Shown in pieces: positions 10,930-23,714 of a stretch of 64,000 bases of DNA. The position numbers and the translations under genes were made by a program. This DNA is from Candidatus Heimdallarchaeota archaeon. GTDB lineage: Archaea; Asgardarchaeota; Heimdallarchaeia; Hodarchaeales; Hodarchaeaceae. How positions within the stretch are numbered: position 1 is the stretch's first letter; each line of letters begins with the position of its first letter. The notes below the pieces were generated by a model, which was not told where the DNA came from, ran no database searches, and saw only the letters and a program-made list of their open reading frames with translations. The DNA lies in contig CP070695.1 of the NCBI GenBank assembly GCA_020353515.1, positions 839,369 through 903,368 on the forward strand, in the 5' to 3' direction.

Positions 10930-13047
10930 ATGAAGGGATGCATAATGGTTGATATTCCAAAACGAATTGAAAGATTAGAGGAGCTTGCAGAGAATCTCAC
11001 ATGGGTATGGAACCCAAAAGCCCGTGAACTATTTAAACGTCTTGATCATCCTCTATGGGTTTATACTTACCATAATCCTGTTCGTATGCTGCAAATCATA
11101 CCAAATAAAAGGTTAGATGCAGCTGCTCAGAACCCAGCTTTCCTTAAACATTATGATGGCGTCATGCATAATTTTGATCGTGATCTAGATTCAAAGGACA
11201 CATGGTTCTCAAATAACTACCCTCATTTTTCTGGGGAAATAGCTTATGTTAGCACTGAATATGGATTACATCAATCCCTCCCAATTTATTCAGGTGGTTT
11301 AGGAATCCTTAGCGGAGATCATGTTAAGGAAAGTAGTGATTTAGGAGTTCCACTCGTAGGAGTAGGATTCGTGTATCCCCAAGGGTATTTTACTCAGTTA
11401 TTGCCAAGAAATGGGTGGCAAGAAGCGCAATATAATTACTTGAAATTTAATCAAATACCAATTAATCCTATTATCAAAAATGAAGCTGAACAATTACATA
11501 TAGAACTAAAGTTCCCTAAGCCAATTTTTTTGAGAGTCTGGAACCTCAAGGTTGGAAGAACCCCACTTTATCTTATGGACACTGATATTGATAAAAATGA
11601 ACCATGGAACCGAGGTCTTTCAGCACGACTTTATGGAGGAGACCAAGAAATGAGGATACGTCAGGAAATTGTTCTTGGTTTCGGGTCTGTAAGGATTCTT
11701 TCACAACTTGGGCATAATCCAGAAGTATATCACTGTAATGAGGGTCATACTGCGTTTGTCGGCCTTGAACTTCTTCGAAGGGAGATGATTGAGAATGGAA
11801 AGAGCTTTGAAGAAGCAACTAAAATTGTACGAAATAAGATTATTTTCACGACTCATACTCCAGTAAAAGCTGGACACGATCAATTTCCTTTTGAATTAGT
11901 ATCAAAGTACTTCCAAGATTATTGGGAAAATTTGGGGATCAATCGTGATAAATTTTTAGCTCTTGGAGCATTCGATTGGGGAGATGGCCAAGGTCCAAGG
12001 TTTAATATGACGGCACTTGGTATTAGGTTAAGCCGGTATCAAAATGCTGTCTCAAAGCTCAATTGTGAAATAAGTAACAAAATGTGGAATGGCCTTTTTT
12101 CTACACCTGAATTTGAGAACCGATTACCGATCCAGTTCGTCACCAACGGGGTTCATATTCCCACATGGATTAGCAGATCATTTCAAGCTTTATATAAAAA
12201 GTATTTAGGTAAAAATTGGATTGATAGACACGATGATCCTGACATATTCGAGAAAATTGACAATATCCCAAATAGGGAACTTTGGGCTGCCCGAGAAGAA
12301 GCAAGGGATCGGATGTTTGTATTTTTACGTGAAAGAGCCCGTATTAAAAGAATAGATGAGAATAAAGATTCCCGTCAGACCTTAGTTGCTGGAGCTCTTC
12401 TTGATCCTCATGCTTTGACAATTGGGTTTGCAAGAAGATTTGCAACTTATAAACGAGCATTTTTAATCTTTCATGATATTGAAAGACTCCGTAAAAGTCT
12501 ATTGGACCGTTATACCCCTATTCAAATTATTTTCGCAGGAAAGGCTCACCCTGCTGATGATCCCGGGAAGAATGTTCTTCAACAGATTTACCAAAAGGCG
12601 GTAGATCCATCAATAGGGGGTCGAGTAGCTTTCATCGAAGATTATGATATGCAGGTAGGAAGGTACTTAGTCCAAGGCTGTGATGTGTGGCTTAATACAC
12701 CCCGAAAACCTTTTGAAGCATCAGGTACTTCAGGTATGAAAGCTGCTATCAATGGGTGCCTTAACTTCTCTATTCTAGACGGGTGGTGGCCCGAAGGATA
12801 TGATGGAAGTAATGGCTGGACTATTGGAGGCCAAGAGCAAAATAATATTGAAGATCAAAACCAGTATGATGTTAATTCGTTTTATAGAATTCTAGAGGAA
12901 GAAATACGACCGTTATTTTATGATAAAGATAGTGAAGGAATACCAACGGGGTGGTGTGAAGTCGTTCGAAATTCAATTAAAAGTATAACACCCGCTTTCT
13001 CTGCCCGAAGAATGCTTAAAGAATATGTAAAAGGATATATTCCATGA
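10930..13047 (+). CDS. glgP: Alpha-glucan (glycogen/maltodextrin) phosphorylase
   Basis: YSGGLGILSGDH, NEGH, FTTHTP, GFARRFATYKR, EASGTSGMKAA (PLP lysine). Confidence 0.95.
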   Translation: MKGCIMVDIPKRIERLEELAENLTWVWNPKARELFKRLDHPLWVYTYHNPVRMLQIIPNKRLDAAAQNPAFLKHYDGVMHNFDRDLDSKDTWFSNNYPHFSGEIAYVSTEYGLHQSLPIYSGGLGILSGDHVKESSDLGVPLVGVGFVYPQGYFTQLLPRNGWQEAQYNYLKFNQIPINPIIKNEAEQLHIELKFPKPIFLRVWNLKVGRTPLYLMDTDIDKNEPWNRGLSARLYGGDQEMRIRQEIVLGFGSVRILSQLGHNPEVYHCNEGHTAFVGLELLRREMIENGKSFEEATKIVRNKIIFTTHTPVKAGHDQFPFELVSKYFQDYWENLGINRDKFLALGAFDWGDGQGPRFNMTALGIRLSRYQNAVSKLNCEISNKMWNGLFSTPEFENRLPIQFVTNGVHIPTWISRSFQALYKKYLGKNWIDRHDDPDIFEKIDNIPNRELWAAREEARDRMFVFLRERARIKRIDENKDSRQTLVAGALLDPHALTIGFARRFATYKRAFLIFHDIERLRKSLLDRYTPIQIIFAGKAHPADDPGKNVLQQIYQKAVDPSIGGRVAFIEDYDMQVGRYLVQGCDVWLNTPRKPFEASGTSGMKAAINGCLNFSILDGWWPEGYDGSNGWTIGGQEQNNIEDQNQYDVNSFYRILEEEIRPLFYDKDSEGIPTGWCEVVRNSIKSITPAFSARRMLKEYVKGYIP

Positions 13048-13803: not shown

Positions 13804-14793
13804 ATGCAAAGTAACGAGCAAAGAAAGAGAATTGGAGTATTCTGTAGTGGGGGTGATGCTCCAGGTATGAATGCTTGTTTGCGAGCTGTAGTACGAAGAG
13901 GTATTGCGAAAAAACTTAATATAATTGCAATCCACAGAGGATTTCAGGGTATTTTCGATGAAGCATTTGAGAAAATGACTCCCCGTTCTGTTGGAAATAT
14001 TCTCCAACTAGGCGGAACTATCATAAAAACCGCAAGATGTAAGAAGTTTTATTCAATAGAGGGGGTATTAGAGGCAGTGACTATATTAAAAAAACACAGA
14101 TTGGATGGATTAATAGCAATAGGGGGAGATGGAACATTTCGTGGTTTATTAGAATTAAAAAAACTTTGGGATGGCCAAGTCATAGGGATTCCAGGAACAA
14201 TCGATAATGATATTTTTGGCACAGATTATACTATTGGTTATGACACTGCAATCGATACTGTTATTCAAATGCTTGATCGAATCAGAGATACAGCAGAGTC
14301 ACATGAACGTGCATTTGTTGTTGAAGTTATGGGACGTCATACAGGTTTTATCGCTCTCAAGGTGGGGATAGGATGTGGAGCTGAGGAGGTATTGATCCCA
14401 GAACATACTATTGATTTAGAAACTGTAGCTAGGCGTGTAAAGGTAGCTCAGAAACGAGGGAAAAAAAGTATTATCATCATAGTAGCGGAAGGGGTAAGTA
14501 AAGGTAACATTTTTGATTTTTGTAATCGTTTAACTACCCAAAAAGGATTGGAATTTCAAACACACATATCTATTTTAGGCCACGTACAACGTGGAGGGTC
14601 ACCAAGCGCTCTTGACCGATGGCTGGCAACACGACTTGGTGCATTCGCCGTCGACTGTGTTTTAAAAGGGGATACAGGAATTATGGTGGGTGAACAGAAT
14701 CTCCAATTAGTAAAAATTCCCCTTGAGGATACACAAAAGAAAAAACCCATTGATTCCTATGCTTATGAAATAATTCACGATCTTGCGATTTAA
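13804..14793 (+). CDS. pfkA: ATP-dependent 6-phosphofructokinase (bacterial PfkA type)
   Basis: SGGDAPGMN, GGDGT and PGTIDND (Gly at both ATP/PPi-discriminating positions), EVMGR, LGHVQRGG. Confidence 0.93.
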   Translation: MQSNEQRKRIGVFCSGGDAPGMNACLRAVVRRGIAKKLNIIAIHRGFQGIFDEAFEKMTPRSVGNILQLGGTIIKTARCKKFYSIEGVLEAVTILKKHRLDGLIAIGGDGTFRGLLELKKLWDGQVIGIPGTIDNDIFGTDYTIGYDTAIDTVIQMLDRIRDTAESHERAFVVEVMGRHTGFIALKVGIGCGAEEVLIPEHTIDLETVARRVKVAQKRGKKSIIIIVAEGVSKGNIFDFCNRLTTQKGLEFQTHISILGHVQRGGSPSALDRWLATRLGAFAVDCVLKGDTGIMVGEQNLQLVKIPLEDTQKKKPIDSYAYEIIHDLAI

Positions 14794-16209: not shown

Positions 16210-17391
16210 TTGGAGATACCATTGGAACACGTTAAAAGGCAAAATTTGTCGTCTTTTTATTCGGCTTTCAATCTCCTAGAAAAAACAGCGAAAAGAACGG
16301 TAAATTCGATAAATGAAAATCCTCCTTGCCTTGTAGAATTTTGTAAAACACTTGAAGAAGCGAAAGAGAAAGACAAGAGGATACATCTCGTGGGGATGGG
16401 TAGATCAGGAAAAGTAGGTATGTTATTAGGGGAATTATTAAAAAATGTAGGTTATAAAGTCTCATATTTAGGTAAAAGTCTTGCCAAACCAGTCCGAAGA
16501 GATGATGTAGTTATTGGTATCACTGGTTCAGGATGGACTAGCTTCACGATAAATACCTTACAGGAATCAATTAGTAGAGGCGCAAAAATTTTAGTTTTCA
16601 CTGGTGACCAGCATTCTCTTGCAGCAAGATTAGCAGATTCAATTATTCTTATCCCACGGGGATATGTGAAGGAAAAGTTCGCTCCTGTTTCTCATGCTGC
16701 CTTAACACCTGTTTCTCACGCACCTCTTACCCCACTTGGCACAGTATTTGAAATGACATCTATGTGTATTGGTATTGGTGTAATTTTAGGACTCCGAGAC
16801 GACTCATCTGTTAAAGGGTTTAATGAAAGTGTAAATGAAGTTTTAAGAGCAGCAGAAATGACTTTAGACAATATTAAGAGAAACGAACAACCTTTACTGC
16901 AGTTTGTCACTCTCCTTGAAAGTTATTCCAGCCAATCAGGTAAAATGCTATTTGTCTATGGTAGTGGCCTAGATTCAATTATCGCAAGTATTTCCTCTAT
17001 TAGATTAAGTCATCTAAGAATTAATTGTAAATCAAATTATGATTGGAGATTCAGAGGGAAAAAAGACTTACTTATTGGAATCTCGGGTTCAGGTGTATCC
17101 ACAAGTACTTTAGAACGTGTTGAAAGTGCGAAATCCGCCCATATGCGCATAGTTGGGTTAACATCTTTTTCAGAATCAGAATTAGCTAGAAAATCAGATA
17201 TTTTTCTCCCTATTGAGGGAAGAACAGAAAAGATAAGTGCTGATTTACATCAAATATCGAATCTTAGCTTCTTAATTCCTTCATTTGAATACGCGGCCGC
17301 AATTACTTTAGATTCATGTGTTGCTCAATTAGCAATGGATCTAGGCATTAGTGAGAGAGAAATGAAAGAAGAGCATGCGAATATTGAATGA
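16210..17391 (+). CDS. 6-phospho-3-hexuloisomerase-like protein with two tandem SIS domains
   Basis: Domain 1: GMGRSG, ITGSGWT, APLTPLGTVFE. Domain 2: GSGLDS, ISGSGVS, PSFE. C-terminal MKEEHANIE is the typical PHI ending. Confidence 0.85.
   Translation: MEIPLEHVKRQNLSSFYSAFNLLEKTAKRTVNSINENPPCLVEFCKTLEEAKEKDKRIHLVGMGRSGKVGMLLGELLKNVGYKVSYLGKSLAKPVRRDDVVIGITGSGWTSFTINTLQESISRGAKILVFTGDQHSLAARLADSIILIPRGYVKEKFAPVSHAALTPVSHAPLTPLGTVFEMTSMCIGIGVILGLRDDSSVKGFNESVNEVLRAAEMTLDNIKRNEQPLLQFVTLLESYSSQSGKMLFVYGSGLDSIIASISSIRLSHLRINCKSNYDWRFRGKKDLLIGISGSGVSTSTLERVESAKSAHMRIVGLTSFSESELARKSDIFLPIEGRTEKISADLHQISNLSFLIPSFEYAAAITLDSCVAQLAMDLGISEREMKEEHANIE
16684..16731 (+). repeat. 24-bp imperfect tandem duplication within the PHI gene (PVSHAALT/PVSHAPLT)
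   Basis: cctgtttctcatgctgccttaaca followed by cctgtttctcacgcacctcttacc. Confidence 0.85.
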
Positions 17392-17393
17392 TT

Positions 17394-17693
17394 TCAGAGT
17401 CCAAGCTTAAAAAATCCACCTGCGATTAGTGGAAAAATGGACACCTCACAGTCGTGACTTAAGCTAGTATCTAATCCCTCCAGAGCAAGTATATTTCGTC
17501 CATCAATAAGAATTGTAAATCCTTTTTTTAATTCTTCATTTTCTAAAAAGAAAGAACTTCCTTTTTTACCAGATTTCGATTGAAAAAAGTCGAAAATCTG
17601 CCTCAATTCTATAGGTTCCTTAATAACAATATTATGAGTTTCTCCAAATTCCAATTGTAAAATGGCAAAAAAAATGAGCCTTATTGTAATCAT
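17394..17693 (-). CDS. MoaD/ThiS/SAMP-family ubiquitin-like protein with C-terminal extension after Gly-Gly
   Basis: ILIDGRNI...GLDT.L...EVSIFPLIAGG followed by FFKLGL; start overlaps the stop of the upstream AOR-HPS gene (ATGA). Confidence 0.88.
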   Translation of the reverse strand: MITIRLIFFAILQLEFGETHNIVIKEPIELRQIFDFFQSKSGKKGSSFFLENEELKKGFTILIDGRNILALEGLDTSLSHDCEVSIFPLIAGGFFKLGL

Positions 17694-20143
17694 TGGTCTT
17701 TACTCGTCAAAATTACATTTTTAAGATGTAGAGTTGCTTGTTGTGGATTAGCTGACCTTGTAATTGCTGAACCTACAATGATGATATCAGCACCACATTC
17801 GATAGCTTTCGGAATGGTTTCCGCTTTCAGTCCACCCGCTACTGCAATTGGAATCTTGATAATCTCTCTTAATCTTTTTAATGTGGGAAAAGGAATTTTA
17901 TCAAAATCTGATCGCAGTTGTTGATCTATACCTATGTGTAATCCAATAATATCCACACCAAGCTTTTCCAAATCAATGGCTCGGTTAATAGGATCCTTTA
18001 TCCCAATTAAATCGGCGAAAATTTTGACTCCAAATTTTTTTCCTGCCCCAACAGCATCTTTAATGGTACTATCTGGAGCTATACCTAAAATACATACAAT
18101 ATCAGCACCAGCTAACGCAGCCATCTCTGTTTCTAAATAGCTCGCATCCATTGTCTTAAGGTCAGCAACAATTGTTTTGTGAGGAAAGAGCTGACGTAAT
18201 TTACTAACTGATTCTATACCAGTTGCTTTAATTAAAGGGGTGCCCGCTTCAATCCAGTCCACGCCTCCCAAAGCACTTTTCTGAGCTATTTTAAGGGCTT
18301 CATCCAGATCGCGAAGATCTAAAGCAATTTGAAGTTTTGTATGAGTTTTAATAGGTTGAATATTAAGCTCTCCTAATTTTCGATCTGAAGGGATTCCTAA
18401 ATCTCCCCAGCCTCTGATATTATAATATTCTTTTAAAAGACCATTAATATTAAGGGTGTGACCCTTAGCTGGTCCTTCAGGTAACGATTCTTTTTGAAAT
18501 CTTGAAGGGAGGACATCATTTTCTTTTGTCAATCCTTCTCGAATATTAAACAAGCGTTCTAAATTGTAAATTCTTTCTCCAATTTTCCTGAACTCATCCT
18601 CATCAATATAAAAACCAGTAGCGGTAGTTAAAAGCTTCGCATAAATTTCGACTTCGCACTTAAACGTTGAGAATACAGCCATTGCAGTGAATTTACACCA
18701 TTCAGCAGAATCGAGAGCAGCAAATACATCCTGCAAATTTTTGACTAGATTCGCTTTTTCCTCTTCTGCAAAGGGGTCGACAAAATGGGGTAAGCTTAAT
18801 ACTTCTTGAATAACAGTGTAAGCTTTTAAATGGGTTCCCCCACTATTGGAGGTGACGTAGCTAAGTGCCATGCCCTTTATTCCTCTTGGATCATAAGCAG
18901 GTAATTCCAAGCCTTTAACATGGCATGCAAACTTTGTTGTTTCCTTACCAATTTGATTAGCGGCATTTCTTACTCCGTTTGCCAATAAGTCACCTTCATT
19001 CCTTCGATAAGCAATATTTTCTATTAATGAAAGAAGCGCTTGACCATCACCAAATGGTATAGCGTTAGGAATGATTTTTTTTTCACTACATTCCATAAAC
19101 CATCCAATAACGTTTCCAGTAGAAATAGTATCTAATCCTAGCTTGTTACAAAGCGAATTAGCTTTAAATATAGTCTCAAGATCGCTTATACCGCAATTAG
19201 GACCTAGAGCCCATAATGATTCATATTCAGGACCTTGTGTTTCTATCTCCTTGTATTTCATGATCCTCCCGCAAGCAATAGGACAGCCTCGGCAAGGTTC
19301 TTTCTTCACTAAGTATTCCCTAAGTGTTTCACCTGCAATTTGACGTACATCATCAAAAATACCAGTACTGAAGTTTTTAACAGGAAGTACACCGTGCTTA
19401 TTTACAATGTTAACAAGAATAGGAGTTCCATAAAGTCCCATTCCAGTTCCTGTCACAGGGTGCCCCTTTAAGATCTCTAAAAACTTTTTATTAACCTTCC
19501 GAAACGCGTGTTGGTTAACAGGGACGACTTTTCCATTTCCTCGAACTACAACAGCTTTAAGCTTTTTTGAACCCCAAACAGCTCCAATACCTCCTCTCCC
19601 TGCAGTTCTTGTTCCATTGATTACGCAGGCAAAATGAACTAGATTTTCCCCTGCAGGACCTATAGCTGCAACAGAATGACCACTGTGACGCTTTTTTAGT
19701 AATCCTTCTGTTTCATCGATAGTTTTCCCCCATAGATTCGTGGCATCTTGAATTAAAACGTTCTTTGCATTTATTAAAAGATAAACAGGGGTATCAGACG
19801 CATCCTCGATAATAATACCATCATAACCTGCTCGTTTTATCTCAATCCCTAGTCTTCCCCCACAATGAGTATCATTAAGGGTTCGTTCTGTGAGTGGACT
19901 CTTGAAAACCATACACCACCTCGAAGTAGTAGGAGATGTTGTTCCTGTCATTGGCCCTGTCATAATGACAACTTTATTATCTGCGCTTAACGGATTAATC
20001 CCTGATTTAAGCTCGTCATACAAAATTTTAACGCCATACCCTCTTCCTCCAAGGTATTCTTGAGCGATATCAAGGTTTATTGGTTCTCTTTTGATCTCTT
20101 TTGTCTTTAAATTAACTCTCAGAATATGATTAGCGTAGGTCAC
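17690..20143 (-). CDS. Fusion of aldehyde:ferredoxin oxidoreductase (W/Mo AOR family, aa ~1-600) and 3-hexulose-6-phosphate synthase (aa ~603-817)
   Basis: AOR part: YLGGRG, AIGPAGEN, GRGGIGAVWGSK, CRGCPIAC, GPEYES, LGLDTIS, PAYDPR, ERLFNIREG. HPS part: LQIALD, IEAGTPLIK, ADLKTMD, HIGIDQQ, AVAGG, IVGSAIT. Confidence 0.92.
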   Translation of the reverse strand: MTYANHILRVNLKTKEIKREPINLDIAQEYLGGRGYGVKILYDELKSGINPLSADNKVVIMTGPMTGTTSPTTSRWCMVFKSPLTERTLNDTHCGGRLGIEIKRAGYDGIIIEDASDTPVYLLINAKNVLIQDATNLWGKTIDETEGLLKKRHSGHSVAAIGPAGENLVHFACVINGTRTAGRGGIGAVWGSKKLKAVVVRGNGKVVPVNQHAFRKVNKKFLEILKGHPVTGTGMGLYGTPILVNIVNKHGVLPVKNFSTGIFDDVRQIAGETLREYLVKKEPCRGCPIACGRIMKYKEIETQGPEYESLWALGPNCGISDLETIFKANSLCNKLGLDTISTGNVIGWFMECSEKKIIPNAIPFGDGQALLSLIENIAYRRNEGDLLANGVRNAANQIGKETTKFACHVKGLELPAYDPRGIKGMALSYVTSNSGGTHLKAYTVIQEVLSLPHFVDPFAEEEKANLVKNLQDVFAALDSAEWCKFTAMAVFSTFKCEVEIYAKLLTTATGFYIDEDEFRKIGERIYNLERLFNIREGLTKENDVLPSRFQKESLPEGPAKGHTLNINGLLKEYYNIRGWGDLGIPSDRKLGELNIQPIKTHTKLQIALDLRDLDEALKIAQKSALGGVDWIEAGTPLIKATGIESVSKLRQLFPHKTIVADLKTMDASYLETEMAALAGADIVCILGIAPDSTIKDAVGAGKKFGVKIFADLIGIKDPINRAIDLEKLGVDIIGLHIGIDQQLRSDFDKIPFPTLKRLREIIKIPIAVAGGLKAETIPKAIECGADIIIVGSAITRSANPQQATLHLKNVILTSKDQ

Positions 20144-21413: not shown

Positions 21414-23714
21414 CTAAAGATGAATAACGTCACCACTTTGTAACGATTCAAGGGCAGCACGTGCGACTCGAAGAGCAGAAATACCATCAGAAATAGGAAT
21501 AGGTACTTCTTCATCATTTAATATCGCTTTGGCAAATGCACCAACTTGATCAACAAAAAATGGTAATTGATCAAATTCTTCTAAAGTTGGTTCAAGTCCG
21601 TCTAATTCAGTATTTTTAACAGCAGGCTGTTTTGATGGATCAATCTGGATGGTTCCGTCCTCACCATAAACAAACATCTTTGTATTATTTCCAACTTGGT
21701 CTCTGAGGTCTGCCTCGGCCCAGGAAGCTTCTATTGTAATCAATACCCCTGATTGAGATTGGAGAGTAATGACAACAGTATCCCATGTATCAATCTCAGG
21801 ATAAACAGAATTTGATCCAATTGCATAAACAGTTTTTATCGGATCATTTGGACCTAGAAACCATTGAACTAGATCAATATCGTGTATTGCTAGATCTACA
21901 GCTATCCCCCCACTTTTATCAATGTTCCAAAACCAATCTGCTACTGGTGGTCCTCTTCCCCTTCGGTGCGCATGAATGGAAACTATGGAACCAATCTCAC
22001 CTTTATCTATTACCCTTTTTGTAGTAGAATAGTGAGACATAAACCGACATATCATTGCAACCATTAGTTTGACATTATTTTTCTTTAATTCATGTTCAAC
22101 TGCTTTTAACTCTTCTGGATGTAATAATATGGGTTTCTCACAAAGAATATGTTTTCCTGCATTTGCTGCAGCGACAATGTATTCTTTATGAACGAAAGTT
22201 GGCACACAGATTGATACTGCTTGTAATTGAGGATCATTGAGAGCTTCAAGATAATCCTCGTAAATATTGGTTACCCCAAAAAATAATGCTGCTCCTTGAA
22301 GTGATACTGGATTTCGTGTAGCAAACGAGTGCAATTCTGTCCATGAGCAAGCAGAATAAGCAGCAGCATGAACTTGCCCGATCCCTCCCAATCCAATTAC
22401 CCCTATTTTTAAGGGATTGTCGACTTTTGGAATACCTGAAATTAGTTCATACACTTTTGGAGAAGTCCTTGTAGAAAGCATTGTACCAATGATTCGTTCC
22501 TTAATTCCGAGTTTAGTATTCAATATTTCTTCCATTTCTCTTAAAAATTTTCCAGCAATCAAAGATAACTCAATATAAGACAATTGATGCCAATTAGGTA
22601 AACCAATTACATTTTCAGTAATTTTATCTGTAATAGGACAGCGGGAATCAGTATAGAACACTTCTTGTTCAAAAAAAGGACAAGTAAATGGGCATTTACG
22701 GTTTCCATAACCCATTCTCTCCTTAAAGAGAGTAGAAGTGTAAAGACCAGCAGGATAAATTAACTGTGTTATCTGAAAGTCACGATTAAGACGATCAGCC
22801 AATTCTTTTCCCGTCATCCCAACTATTGATGGATCTATTTGTAGAGCATAAGCATGGAATACATGTTTTCCATTCTCTGGCATTTGAGGTAAGGCTACCC
22901 CTGGAATATCTTTTAATAATGAATTTAAATATAATGAGTTCTTAATTCGTCCATCATTCATCTGATCAAGTTTTTTTAGTTGTTCTAAGCCAATTGCTGC
23001 CTGTATGGTTGTCATACGATAATTATAACCTAATCTCTCATATGTGTACCAAGATGGTTCCCCATGATGTCTAACTAATCGGCATTGCTCAGCAAATTCG
23101 GGGTCATCAGTAACTATAATACCTCCCTCACCAGTCATCATATTTTTGGATTCAAAGAGACTAAAACATCCTGCCTTTCCAAATGTCCCTATTTTTTTCC
23201 CATCATATTCTGCTCCATGAGCTTGACATGCATCCTCAATCAAAACTAAGTTATGTTTTTCAGCAAACTCAAGAAGAGATGTTAAGTCCATTGGATAACC
23301 AAATAAATGTACAGGGATAATTGCTTTTGTTTGGTCAGTTACCTTATTCTTTAAGTCAGTAGGATCCATACAAAAGGTATTAGGGTCAATGTCAACAAAT
23401 ACTGGAATAGCATTTTGATGTAGAACAGCTGTGGCTGTAGCAACAAATGTATAAGGTGGAATTAAGACTTCATCTCCAGCTCCAATTCCAGCAGCAGCTA
23501 AAGACACATGTAAAGCAGCCGTTCCTGAACTAACAGCAATAGCGTACTTAGCACCCATGTAATTAGCAAATGCTGTTTCAAACTCCTCTATTTCAGTACC
23601 ACTCATGAAAGTTAAACGTTTATCACGCATAACACGCTTTACAGCCAAGATCTCTTCCCGTTCAACTTTTCGATCCATTGGGAATAGATCTCGGGGTTTA
23701 ATTTTACGGGTCAT
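21414..23714 (-). CDS. Fusion of DegT/DnrJ/EryC1/StrS PLP aminotransferase and Gfo/Idh/MocA NAD(P) oxidoreductase
   Basis: N-part: SSGTAALH, IEDACQAHGA, FSLFESKNMMTGEGG, GYNYRM. C-part: GVIGLGGIG, HILCEKP, GGIAVDLAIHDID. Confidence 0.9.
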   Translation of the reverse strand: MTRKIKPRDLFPMDRKVEREEILAVKRVMRDKRLTFMSGTEIEEFETAFANYMGAKYAIAVSSGTAALHVSLAAAGIGAGDEVLIPPYTFVATATAVLHQNAIPVFVDIDPNTFCMDPTDLKNKVTDQTKAIIPVHLFGYPMDLTSLLEFAEKHNLVLIEDACQAHGAEYDGKKIGTFGKAGCFSLFESKNMMTGEGGIIVTDDPEFAEQCRLVRHHGEPSWYTYERLGYNYRMTTIQAAIGLEQLKKLDQMNDGRIKNSLYLNSLLKDIPGVALPQMPENGKHVFHAYALQIDPSIVGMTGKELADRLNRDFQITQLIYPAGLYTSTLFKERMGYGNRKCPFTCPFFEQEVFYTDSRCPITDKITENVIGLPNWHQLSYIELSLIAGKFLREMEEILNTKLGIKERIIGTMLSTRTSPKVYELISGIPKVDNPLKIGVIGLGGIGQVHAAAYSACSWTELHSFATRNPVSLQGAALFFGVTNIYEDYLEALNDPQLQAVSICVPTFVHKEYIVAAANAGKHILCEKPILLHPEELKAVEHELKKNNVKLMVAMICRFMSHYSTTKRVIDKGEIGSIVSIHAHRRGRGPPVADWFWNIDKSGGIAVDLAIHDIDLVQWFLGPNDPIKTVYAIGSNSVYPEIDTWDTVVITLQSQSGVLITIEASWAEADLRDQVGNNTKMFVYGEDGTIQIDPSKQPAVKNTELDGLEPTLEEFDQLPFFVDQVGAFAKAILNDEEVPIPISDGISALRVARAALESLQSGDVIHL

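Follow-up and report, generated by a model that had tools for sequence, protein, structure and literature searches.

A fused aldehyde oxidoreductase and hexulose-phosphate synthase gene in Asgard and other archaea: a candidate pentose-forming module with built-in formaldehyde oxidation

The fusion gene and its two domains

The window analysed here is a stretch of 64,000 nucleotides (nt) from the genome of a Hodarchaeales archaeon (Candidatus Heimdallarchaeota archaeon, contig CP070695.1, positions 839,369 to 903,368). On its minus strand lies a single uninterrupted open reading frame (ORF) of 817 amino acids (aa), in which an aldehyde:ferredoxin oxidoreductase (AOR) domain is joined to an HPS (3-hexulose-6-phosphate synthase) domain. 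The stop codon of this fusion gene overlaps the start of a gene for a small MoaD/ThiS-like protein, and a gene for a tandem double-SIS protein, a candidate 6-phospho-3-hexuloisomerase (PHI), converges on the latter (Table 1). An initial annotation, made from the DNA letters, had read these genes as a module that runs the ribulose monophosphate (RuMP) pathway in reverse and oxidises the released formaldehyde on the same polypeptide. Its observation that one frame joins a complete AOR to a complete HPS is confirmed. Pfam assigns aa 6-202 to AFOR_N (252 bits), aa 216-595 to AFOR_C (455 bits) and aa 602-803 to OMPdecase/HUMPS (119 bits), the first two above their gathering cut-offs of 29.8 (PF02730) and 27 (PF01314), and the cofactor and catalytic residues of both domains are retained. 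By all testable sequence criteria the protein is a member of the AOR family, within the AOR clade, and of the HPS family. In an AlphaFold2 model of the whole chain, obtained with the alignment of the fusions, the predicted local distance difference test (pLDDT) is 93.2 and the predicted template modelling score 0.90, with pLDDT values of 84-89 across the linker; the model gives a weak hint that the two domains hold a defined mutual position.

Table 1. Genes and domains of the module and its surroundings. Positions are those of the window, except for the last row, which refers to locus L003.
Feature	Position	Strand	Remarks
AOR-HPS fusion gene	17690..20143	minus	single 817-aa ORF, GTG start; stop codon 17690-17692
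AOR domain	18350..20143	minus	aa 1-598; tungsto/molybdopterin and [4Fe-4S] aldehyde:ferredoxin oxidoreductase, AOR sensu stricto clade by sequence
Short linker and HPS domain	17693..18349	minus	linker ~aa 596-601, HPS aa 602-817; assigned by TIGR03128 and nearest structures
MoaD/ThiS-fold small protein	17394..17693	minus	99 aa
Tandem double-SIS protein	16210..17391	plus	393 aa; candidate 6-phospho-3-hexuloisomerase, two PHI-like halves
Phosphofructokinase	13804..14793	plus	Pfam PFK 345 bits; other branch consuming fructose 6-phosphate
Alpha-glucan phosphorylase	10930..13047	plus	Pfam DUF3417 and Phosphorylase; glycogen-to-hexose-phosphate supply
DegT/DnrJ-type aminotransferase and Gfo/Idh/MocA oxidoreductase fusion	21414-23714	minus	766 aa; conserved beside the module in L085
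~990-aa fusion variant P0043	L003 4569-7544		further examples P0037, L011, L012; one in an Aenigmatarchaeota metagenome-assembled genome

The closest structural relative of the AOR domain is the AOR of Pyrococcus furiosus (PDB entry 1AOR), with which it aligns from end to end at 517 bits. Other structures of the family score much lower, i.e., 338 bits for the formaldehyde oxidoreductase FOR (1B25), 199 bits for WOR5 and 174 bits for BamB. These scores bear out the assignment to the AOR family, which both Pfam domains support, and place the domain in the clade of broad-specificity AORs; membership of the FOR clade is ruled out, as is identity with GAPOR, which reaches 40 bits only. Residue conservation was judged on an alignment of 45 diverse fusions, down to 43% identity. 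Invariant in this alignment are the four ligands of the [4Fe-4S] cluster, C284, C287, C291 and C483 (a CxxCxxxC motif and a distal cysteine), which align to Cys288, Cys291, Cys295 and Cys494 of the P. furiosus enzyme. The same holds for the catalytic residues E308 and H438 and for D338 and D478 of the pterin-binding motifs; the catalytic glutamate and histidine near the metal in P. furiosus AOR we take to be E313 and H448. A comparison aimed at fusion-specific changes of the active site brought out only six clade-specific positions and a short insertion of 4-5 aa at about aa 491-495, after the fourth cysteine.

The HPS domain scores 210.2 bits (214.4 bits in the genome search) with the NCBIfam model TIGR03128 (RuMP_HxlA), for which the equivalog cut-off is 200 bits, while the competing models for UlaD/KGPDC and PyrF reach 83 and 51 bits. 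The nearest solved structures are 9LJ9, of the HPS-PHI type (220 bits), and the HPS of M. gastri (3AJX, 141 bits), compared with 73 bits for KGPDC. The call of HPS over UlaD/KGPDC, which the initial annotation had based on a short motif, therefore holds, and a KGPDC/UlaD identity of the C-terminal domain is ruled out by both kinds of score. The domain follows the pattern of the OMPDC suprafamily, with the aspartate of strand 1, a glutamate, the DxKxxD motif, the histidine of HxGxD and a phosphate-binding GG, all of which align to 9LJ9 and 3AJX. The residues concerned, D609, E632, D661, K663, D666 and H736 together with the phosphate-binding G770-G771, are invariant in the 45 fusions. The models of known HPS fusions do not describe the protein: NF009833 (Fae-HPS) matches the HPS part with 144 bits against a cut-off of 274, and NF041755 (HPS-PHI) matches the HPS half only, with 206 bits against a cut-off of 500. 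No Fae domain was found in the fusion protein with Pfam and NCBIfam.

Distribution and origin of the fusion

The architecture AFOR_N, AFOR_C and OMPdecase occurs in more than 100 protein clusters (90% identity level), which a word-indexed search retrieved from assemblies of NCBI, JGI, ENA and Logan; many of the carriers are uncultured archaea. Their identity to the window protein ranges from 42 to 87%, the closest relatives (84-87%) being named Hodarchaeales or Promethearchaeota. Named carriers include Hodarchaeales/Hodarchaeota, Heimdall-, Thor- and Hermodarchaeota, Thermoplasmata, Methanomethylicaceae, Nezhaarchaeales and Thermoprotei, to which the species-representative genomes add Bathyarchaeia/Nitrososphaerota, Methanosuratincola and one Aenigmatarchaeota (DPANN) metagenome-assembled genome. 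An alignment search for related loci with the junction yielded fewer fusions, with nine of the 80 loci spanning the junction; most of the 80 are plain HPS, and Asgard relatives are absent among them.

The junction between the two domains is real and no assembly error, since more than 100 clusters share the architecture. The alternative that two adjacent genes were joined by a sequencing or annotation error has a negligible probability and is refuted by this conservation: the clusters are independent and the architecture is uninterrupted down to 42% identity, seven other Asgard genomes carry open frames that span the junction, and a public contig of 3420 nt (X1), which may come from the source sample, matches 17617-20143 without a difference. 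A second contig (X2), from an independent sample, covers 18327-18522 and reaches only about 13-16 nt past the linker on the HPS side, an overhang too short for it to be counted as bridging the junction. Of the checks listed by the initial annotation, the search for the architecture across archaea and the coverage of the junction (by X1) come out in favour of a genuine fusion. Linker length is constant within the main fusion clade; a divergent group (P0122/P0123/P0180) has about 12 residues more. The spread of the architecture over more than 100 clusters at 42-87% identity and the fixed linker length of the main clade indicate that the fusion is maintained by selection. Variants of ~990 aa (991-aa forms among them) consist of the AOR domain, a degenerate HPS copy and then a full HPS; the degenerate copy lacks the first aspartate and the HxGxD region with the catalytic histidine.

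When the AOR domain by itself was run with HMMER against all of 1.84 billion representatives, two fusion representatives came out on top (671 and 653 bits), followed by plain AORs of ~600 aa at no more than 538 bits. Trees were computed with FastTree; they are unrooted and the supports are local SH-like values. In the AOR-domain tree 31 of the 34 fusions form one clade (support 95), and the three divergent ones make up another tight clade, next to the main one within an unresolved polytomy, an arrangement compatible with a single origin. The HPS-domain tree has all fusions on one side and 68 of the 69 plain HPS on the other; the single exception is encoded on a contig of 2.5 kb, and a truncated fusion may lie behind it. 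In each of the two trees the Asgard fusions are monophyletic. This pattern fits one old fusion event, with subsequent vertical spread plus transfer.

Within the Asgard phylum, an even sample of 151 genomes was surveyed, a fusion being counted as a junction-spanning match in one open frame. Eight genomes carry the fusion: five in the window's genus (of eight genus genomes sampled, the window's own genome, G000, included), two in family f26 and one in family f27. HPS frames in the other sampled genomes measure ~400-460 aa or 220-250 aa. Fae is present in 101 of the 151 genomes and in none of the eight carriers of the fusion. This distribution agrees with the AOR domain standing in for Fae.

Neighbouring genes

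The MoaD-like gene overlaps the stop codon of the fusion by 4 nt (ATGA), as had been noted initially, and its product matches Pfam ThiS (PF02597) with 32.7 bits (cut-off 22.5). With the NCBIfam models moaD_arch and SAMP1 it stays under the cut-offs (33 vs 49.5 and 33 vs 60, respectively). Orthologues directly adjoin the fusion in 10 of the 14 foreign loci with enough flanking sequence, in Asgard archaea downstream on the same strand and in Nezhaarchaeales and Methanomethylicota upstream and divergent; among the foreign loci compared, such a neighbour is absent in the group of ~990-aa variants and in L004. Within the genome, four of the seven MoaD-like ORFs have an AOR paralogue no more than 5 kb away, so that the tie is to AOR enzymes generally and not to RuMP chemistry. 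Most simply, the protein would be a sulfur carrier for the pterin dithiolene, or a maturation factor, of the AOR moiety. It does not end in a free Gly-Gly: the GG pair is followed by FFKLGL (window 17394-17417). In close relatives, including L085 and L086, the tails after GG are unrelated and comprise 5-24 residues, and the distant orthologues (L087, L088, L002) end exactly at GG. The varied tails that follow GG suggest that the MoaD-like carriers of this lineage are proteolytically matured. Short tails after GG are also seen in several other MoaD-like ORFs of the genome.

The double-SIS ORF ends 2 nt from the stop of the MoaD-like gene. The convergence described by the initial annotation is thereby confirmed, but the identification as a plain PHI is not: with the PHI model TIGR03127 the whole protein reaches 126.8 bits and its halves 69.5 and 60.8 bits, against a cut-off of 160. 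The two SIS halves are 24% identical to each other (E 2e-6), and the nearest structures of both are of the PHI type, i.e., AF1796 (1VIM), the PHI part of 9LJ9, MJ1247 (1JEO) and YckF (1M3S). The N-terminal half keeps the GRSG, SGxT and GTxFE motifs; the C-terminal half has only an SGSG-type motif. By its sequence the protein is a pseudo-dimer and not a plain PHI, and it is the best PHI-like gene of the genome. It adjoins the fusion only in the Hodarchaeales-like group (L085 and L086); in L086 the fusion-MoaD pair is inverted, and the double-SIS gene lies directly upstream of the fusion and the MoaD-like gene, all three head to tail on one strand. The N-terminal half also contains a tandem duplication of eight residues (VSHAALTP / VSHAPLTP, window 16687-16734) just before the GTxFE motif. 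A second double-SIS paralogue, of 388 aa, is found elsewhere in the genome (G000:C1:3523005-3524024; L090 3985-5151, minus strand), beside a Glycos_transf_3 gene of the nucleoside/AMP phosphorylase-like type. Together with the RuBisCO-family genes of the genome this pair hints at a pentose-bisphosphate or nucleotide-salvage route.

Upstream of the module lie the genes for the glucan phosphorylase, the phosphofructokinase and a C69-like peptidase. The same gene order is seen in the relatives L085 and L086 (79% and 75% identity). In a second Asgard group the fusion is immediately preceded, on its own strand, by a gene for a protein of ~190 aa with a CxxCxxCC domain (PF03692; L087 5381-5953, L088 5379-5966), and L087 has a separate OMPdecase-family gene, of 221 aa, two genes downstream of the fusion.

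Genome context and proposed function

The genome that harbours the fusion consists of one contig of 4,943,496 bp and is 96% complete by marker genes. Profile searches identify the fusion as its sole HPS and count ten AOR-family genes. Fae, transketolase, transaldolase and glucose-6-phosphate dehydrogenase (G6PD) were sought in this genome and none was found. Possible users of formate are a formate-tetrahydrofolate ligase (Fhs, 785 bits) and the alpha subunit of formate dehydrogenase (FdhA, 738 bits, above its cut-off). The initial annotation had asked whether Fae and other pentose routes are missing. A 6-phosphogluconate dehydrogenase (6PGDH, 424 bits) is present; its neighbours are genes for an FGGY sugar kinase, for transporters of the EamA and MFS types and for a Zn-ADH that resembles glucose dehydrogenase (G000:C1:1828671-1836386; L089 4671-12386). 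This module looks like an oxidative entry from gluconate or glucose to ribulose 5-phosphate (Ru5P) without classical G6PD; of the genus members, G000 and G119 alone gave a 6PGDH match. A fragment of an FdhA C-terminus (156-aa frame) lies some 9 kb away from the intact FdhA gene, next to a fragment (65-aa frame) that matches the N-terminal end of a formate channel of the FocA/NirC type (G000:C1:4783924-4784293); the two may be remnants of a formate module.

To explain the association of the two domains, the following scheme is proposed. The double-SIS neighbour would isomerise fructose 6-phosphate (F6P) to D-arabino-3-hexulose 6-phosphate (Hu6P), which the C-terminal HPS domain would cleave to Ru5P and formaldehyde. 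The N-terminal AOR domain, with its tungsto- or molybdopterin and [4Fe-4S] cluster, would oxidise the formaldehyde to formate and pass two electrons to ferredoxin (Fd), such that removal of formaldehyde on the same polypeptide pulls the unfavourable cleavage and prevents the toxin from building up. The net reaction would be F6P + H2O + 2 Fd(ox) -> Ru5P + formate + 2 Fd(red). The formate would pass on to Fhs or to formate dehydrogenase, and the co-translated MoaD-like protein would serve the AOR moiety, by dithiolene sulfur supply or maturation, and not the sugar chemistry. Formaldehyde is the only aldehyde of the HPS reaction and therefore the obvious shared intermediate. Without transketolase and transaldolase Ru5P is not regenerated, which speaks against RuMP running as an assimilatory cycle and in favour of pentose formation, and without Fae a sink for formaldehyde other than tetrahydromethanopterin (H4MPT) is needed. 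The formate/formaldehyde couple has a textbook potential of about -530 mV, so negative that the oxidation can reduce ferredoxin and pull the cleavage. It is probable, at a moderate level of confidence, that F6P is converted in this way by reverse RuMP chemistry via Hu6P to Ru5P and formaldehyde, and the latter on the same polypeptide to formate with reduction of ferredoxin. The catalysis by either domain, the flux direction, the identity of the metal and of the electron acceptor, and any physical channelling are inferred from sequence.

Several observations weigh against this scheme. The AOR domain belongs to the general AOR clade, with few fusion-specific residues and no obvious narrowing to a one-carbon (C1) substrate; enzymes of this clade oxidise a broad range of aldehydes. 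The candidate PHI scores under the PHI cut-off and its C-terminal half has degenerate motifs. With the 6PGDH/gluconate module as another possible supplier of Ru5P, pentoses may not depend on the fusion alone, and its essentiality for them is not demonstrable. Queries with the junction and the HPS domain gave no match in three of the eight genus genomes (G107, G119 and G130, 87-93% complete), so that the fusion appears dispensable in some relatives. The complementarity with Fae rests on three families and few independent lineages, and several Asgard families without Fae carry a plain HPS. The initial proposal of reverse RuMP chemistry with fused formaldehyde oxidation, as an H4MPT-independent counterpart of Fae-HPS, survives with changes, its core being in line with all computational tests applied. 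The intact domains, the sole HPS, the absence of Fae, transketolase and transaldolase and the presence of formate sinks speak for it, while an AOR domain outside the FOR clade, the loss of the plain PHI identity and the possible second pentose source do not; catalysis and channelling are predicted features.

The absence of Ru5P regeneration also bears on two of the other explanations that can be considered. The two domains might merely be kept together for co-expression or co-localisation, the HPS fixing and the AOR oxidising formaldehyde of any source, as a detoxification pair with no obligatory hand-over and no role in pentose formation. A possible second pentose source in the 6PGDH module and the genus members without an HPS match are in keeping with such a pair, and RuMP enzymes are described as detoxifying in many non-methylotrophs (Kato et al. 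2006, to the extent that it is cited in PMC9723716). Fixation of formaldehyde, however, needs a supply and regeneration of Ru5P that is missing from the genome, the fusion is the sole HPS with no other known route from F6P to pentose in the genome, and the linker, tight and of conserved length, and the co-evolution of the domain clades point to a fixed unit of two domains; this explanation is regarded as unlikely. The missing transketolase and transaldolase count likewise against operation in the opposite direction, in which reduced ferredoxin would drive the reduction of formate to formaldehyde at the AOR domain and the HPS domain would trap it at once on Ru5P, for natural reductive assimilation of formate, or of CO2 via formate dehydrogenase, into hexose phosphate, since no assimilatory cycle could then run. 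The potential of the formate/formaldehyde couple lies below that of typical ferredoxins, and the neighbouring genes belong to hexose-phosphate catabolism. AOR-family enzymes are reversible in principle, as known from the reduction of acids by AORs, and the exergonic HPS condensation could pull the unfavourable step; FdhA and RuBisCO-family genes are present in the genome, and a fusion would pay most where the level of free formaldehyde has to be kept very low. On balance this direction is improbable as the explanation of the fusion.

It is slightly more doubtful still that living cells use the enzyme in reverse, at the least when conditions are reducing and formate is plentiful, with low-potential ferredoxin driving the reduction of formate to enzyme-confined formaldehyde that is condensed at once with Ru5P. 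If it did, the fusion would be a natural ATP-free entry from formate to sugar and, together with formate dehydrogenase and RuBisCO-family enzymes, a previously unknown C1 route, as well as a ready-made catalyst for synthetic formate assimilation. A similarly low probability is assigned to the possibility of a drift of the HPS-like barrel to some other aldolase or decarboxylase reaction, in which it would release a different aldehyde or act on a different keto-sugar phosphate and the AOR domain would oxidise the product. The HxlA score barely exceeds its cut-off (210 vs 200), the OMPDC suprafamily is known to drift between HPS and KGPDC, and the AOR domain is of a broad-substrate clade. All HPS signature residues are nevertheless invariant, the nearest structures are true HPS (220 and 141 bits, against 73 for KGPDC), and PHI-like genes are linked to the fusion.

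Taken as a pentose-forming enzyme with an oxidative formaldehyde sink, the fusion can be compared with several known systems. Fae-HPS (NF009833/PRK13307), of methanogens and other H4MPT users, likewise has HPS fused to a formaldehyde consumer, with the partner N-terminal and the HPS C-terminal, and catches formaldehyde on the same polypeptide. Its partner Fae, however, condenses formaldehyde with H4MPT without redox chemistry, whereas the partner in the present fusion is a pterin/[4Fe-4S] oxidoreductase of 600 aa with formate and reduced ferredoxin as predicted products; as it contains no Fae domain, the fusion is not a member of the Fae-HPS family and can only be its functional analogue. The HPS-PHI fusion of Thermococcales (NF041755; 9LJ9) provides the closest solved HPS domain and has a pentose-forming role in reverse RuMP, but there PHI is fused and a formaldehyde sink is lacking, while here the PHI candidate is a separate double-SIS protein. 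The P. furiosus AOR and the related structures 9MQX, 9G7J and 8C0Z share the fold, the cofactor ligands and the catalytic glutamate and histidine; they are stand-alone enzymes of ~605 aa, to which the fusion clade adds its short insertion and the C-terminal HPS barrel. P. furiosus FOR, of the same family and named for formaldehyde oxidation, is more distant. The proposed route would be a ferredoxin-linked functional analogue of the oxidative branch of the pentose-phosphate pathway.

The initial annotation named no characterised AOR-HPS fusion, and none was found described in the full-text literature searched, which lies outside subscription journals. The underlying idea is already in print for separate enzymes. 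For Culexarchaeia a path from RuMP formaldehyde via AOR to formate and Fhs has been proposed (PMC9723716), and for Brockarchaeota the oxidation of formaldehyde by AFOR beside HPS/PHI (PMC8065059); neither paper mentions a fused gene. A study of Asgard archaea (PMC11291895) reports AORs that are unclassified and highly expressed, and HPS fusions of the common kinds. What appears to be new is the fused AOR-HPS gene, as opposed to the oxidation of RuMP formaldehyde by separate AORs.

Pentose synthesis by the reverse RuMP pathway releases one formaldehyde per pentose in archaea. Its fate in lineages without H4MPT and Fae has only been guessed in metagenome papers, and the conserved fusion provides a Rosetta-stone link to a sink of the AOR type. 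If a closed hand-over of formaldehyde exists, the protein would also be of interest for engineered C1 pathways. The AOR family is large and for the most part unassigned; the fusion would provide one of its clades with a physiological substrate, and predicts a ferredoxin-linked "oxidative" pentose route, from F6P to Ru5P, formate and two reduced ferredoxins, in Asgard, TACK, Thermoplasmata and DPANN archaea.

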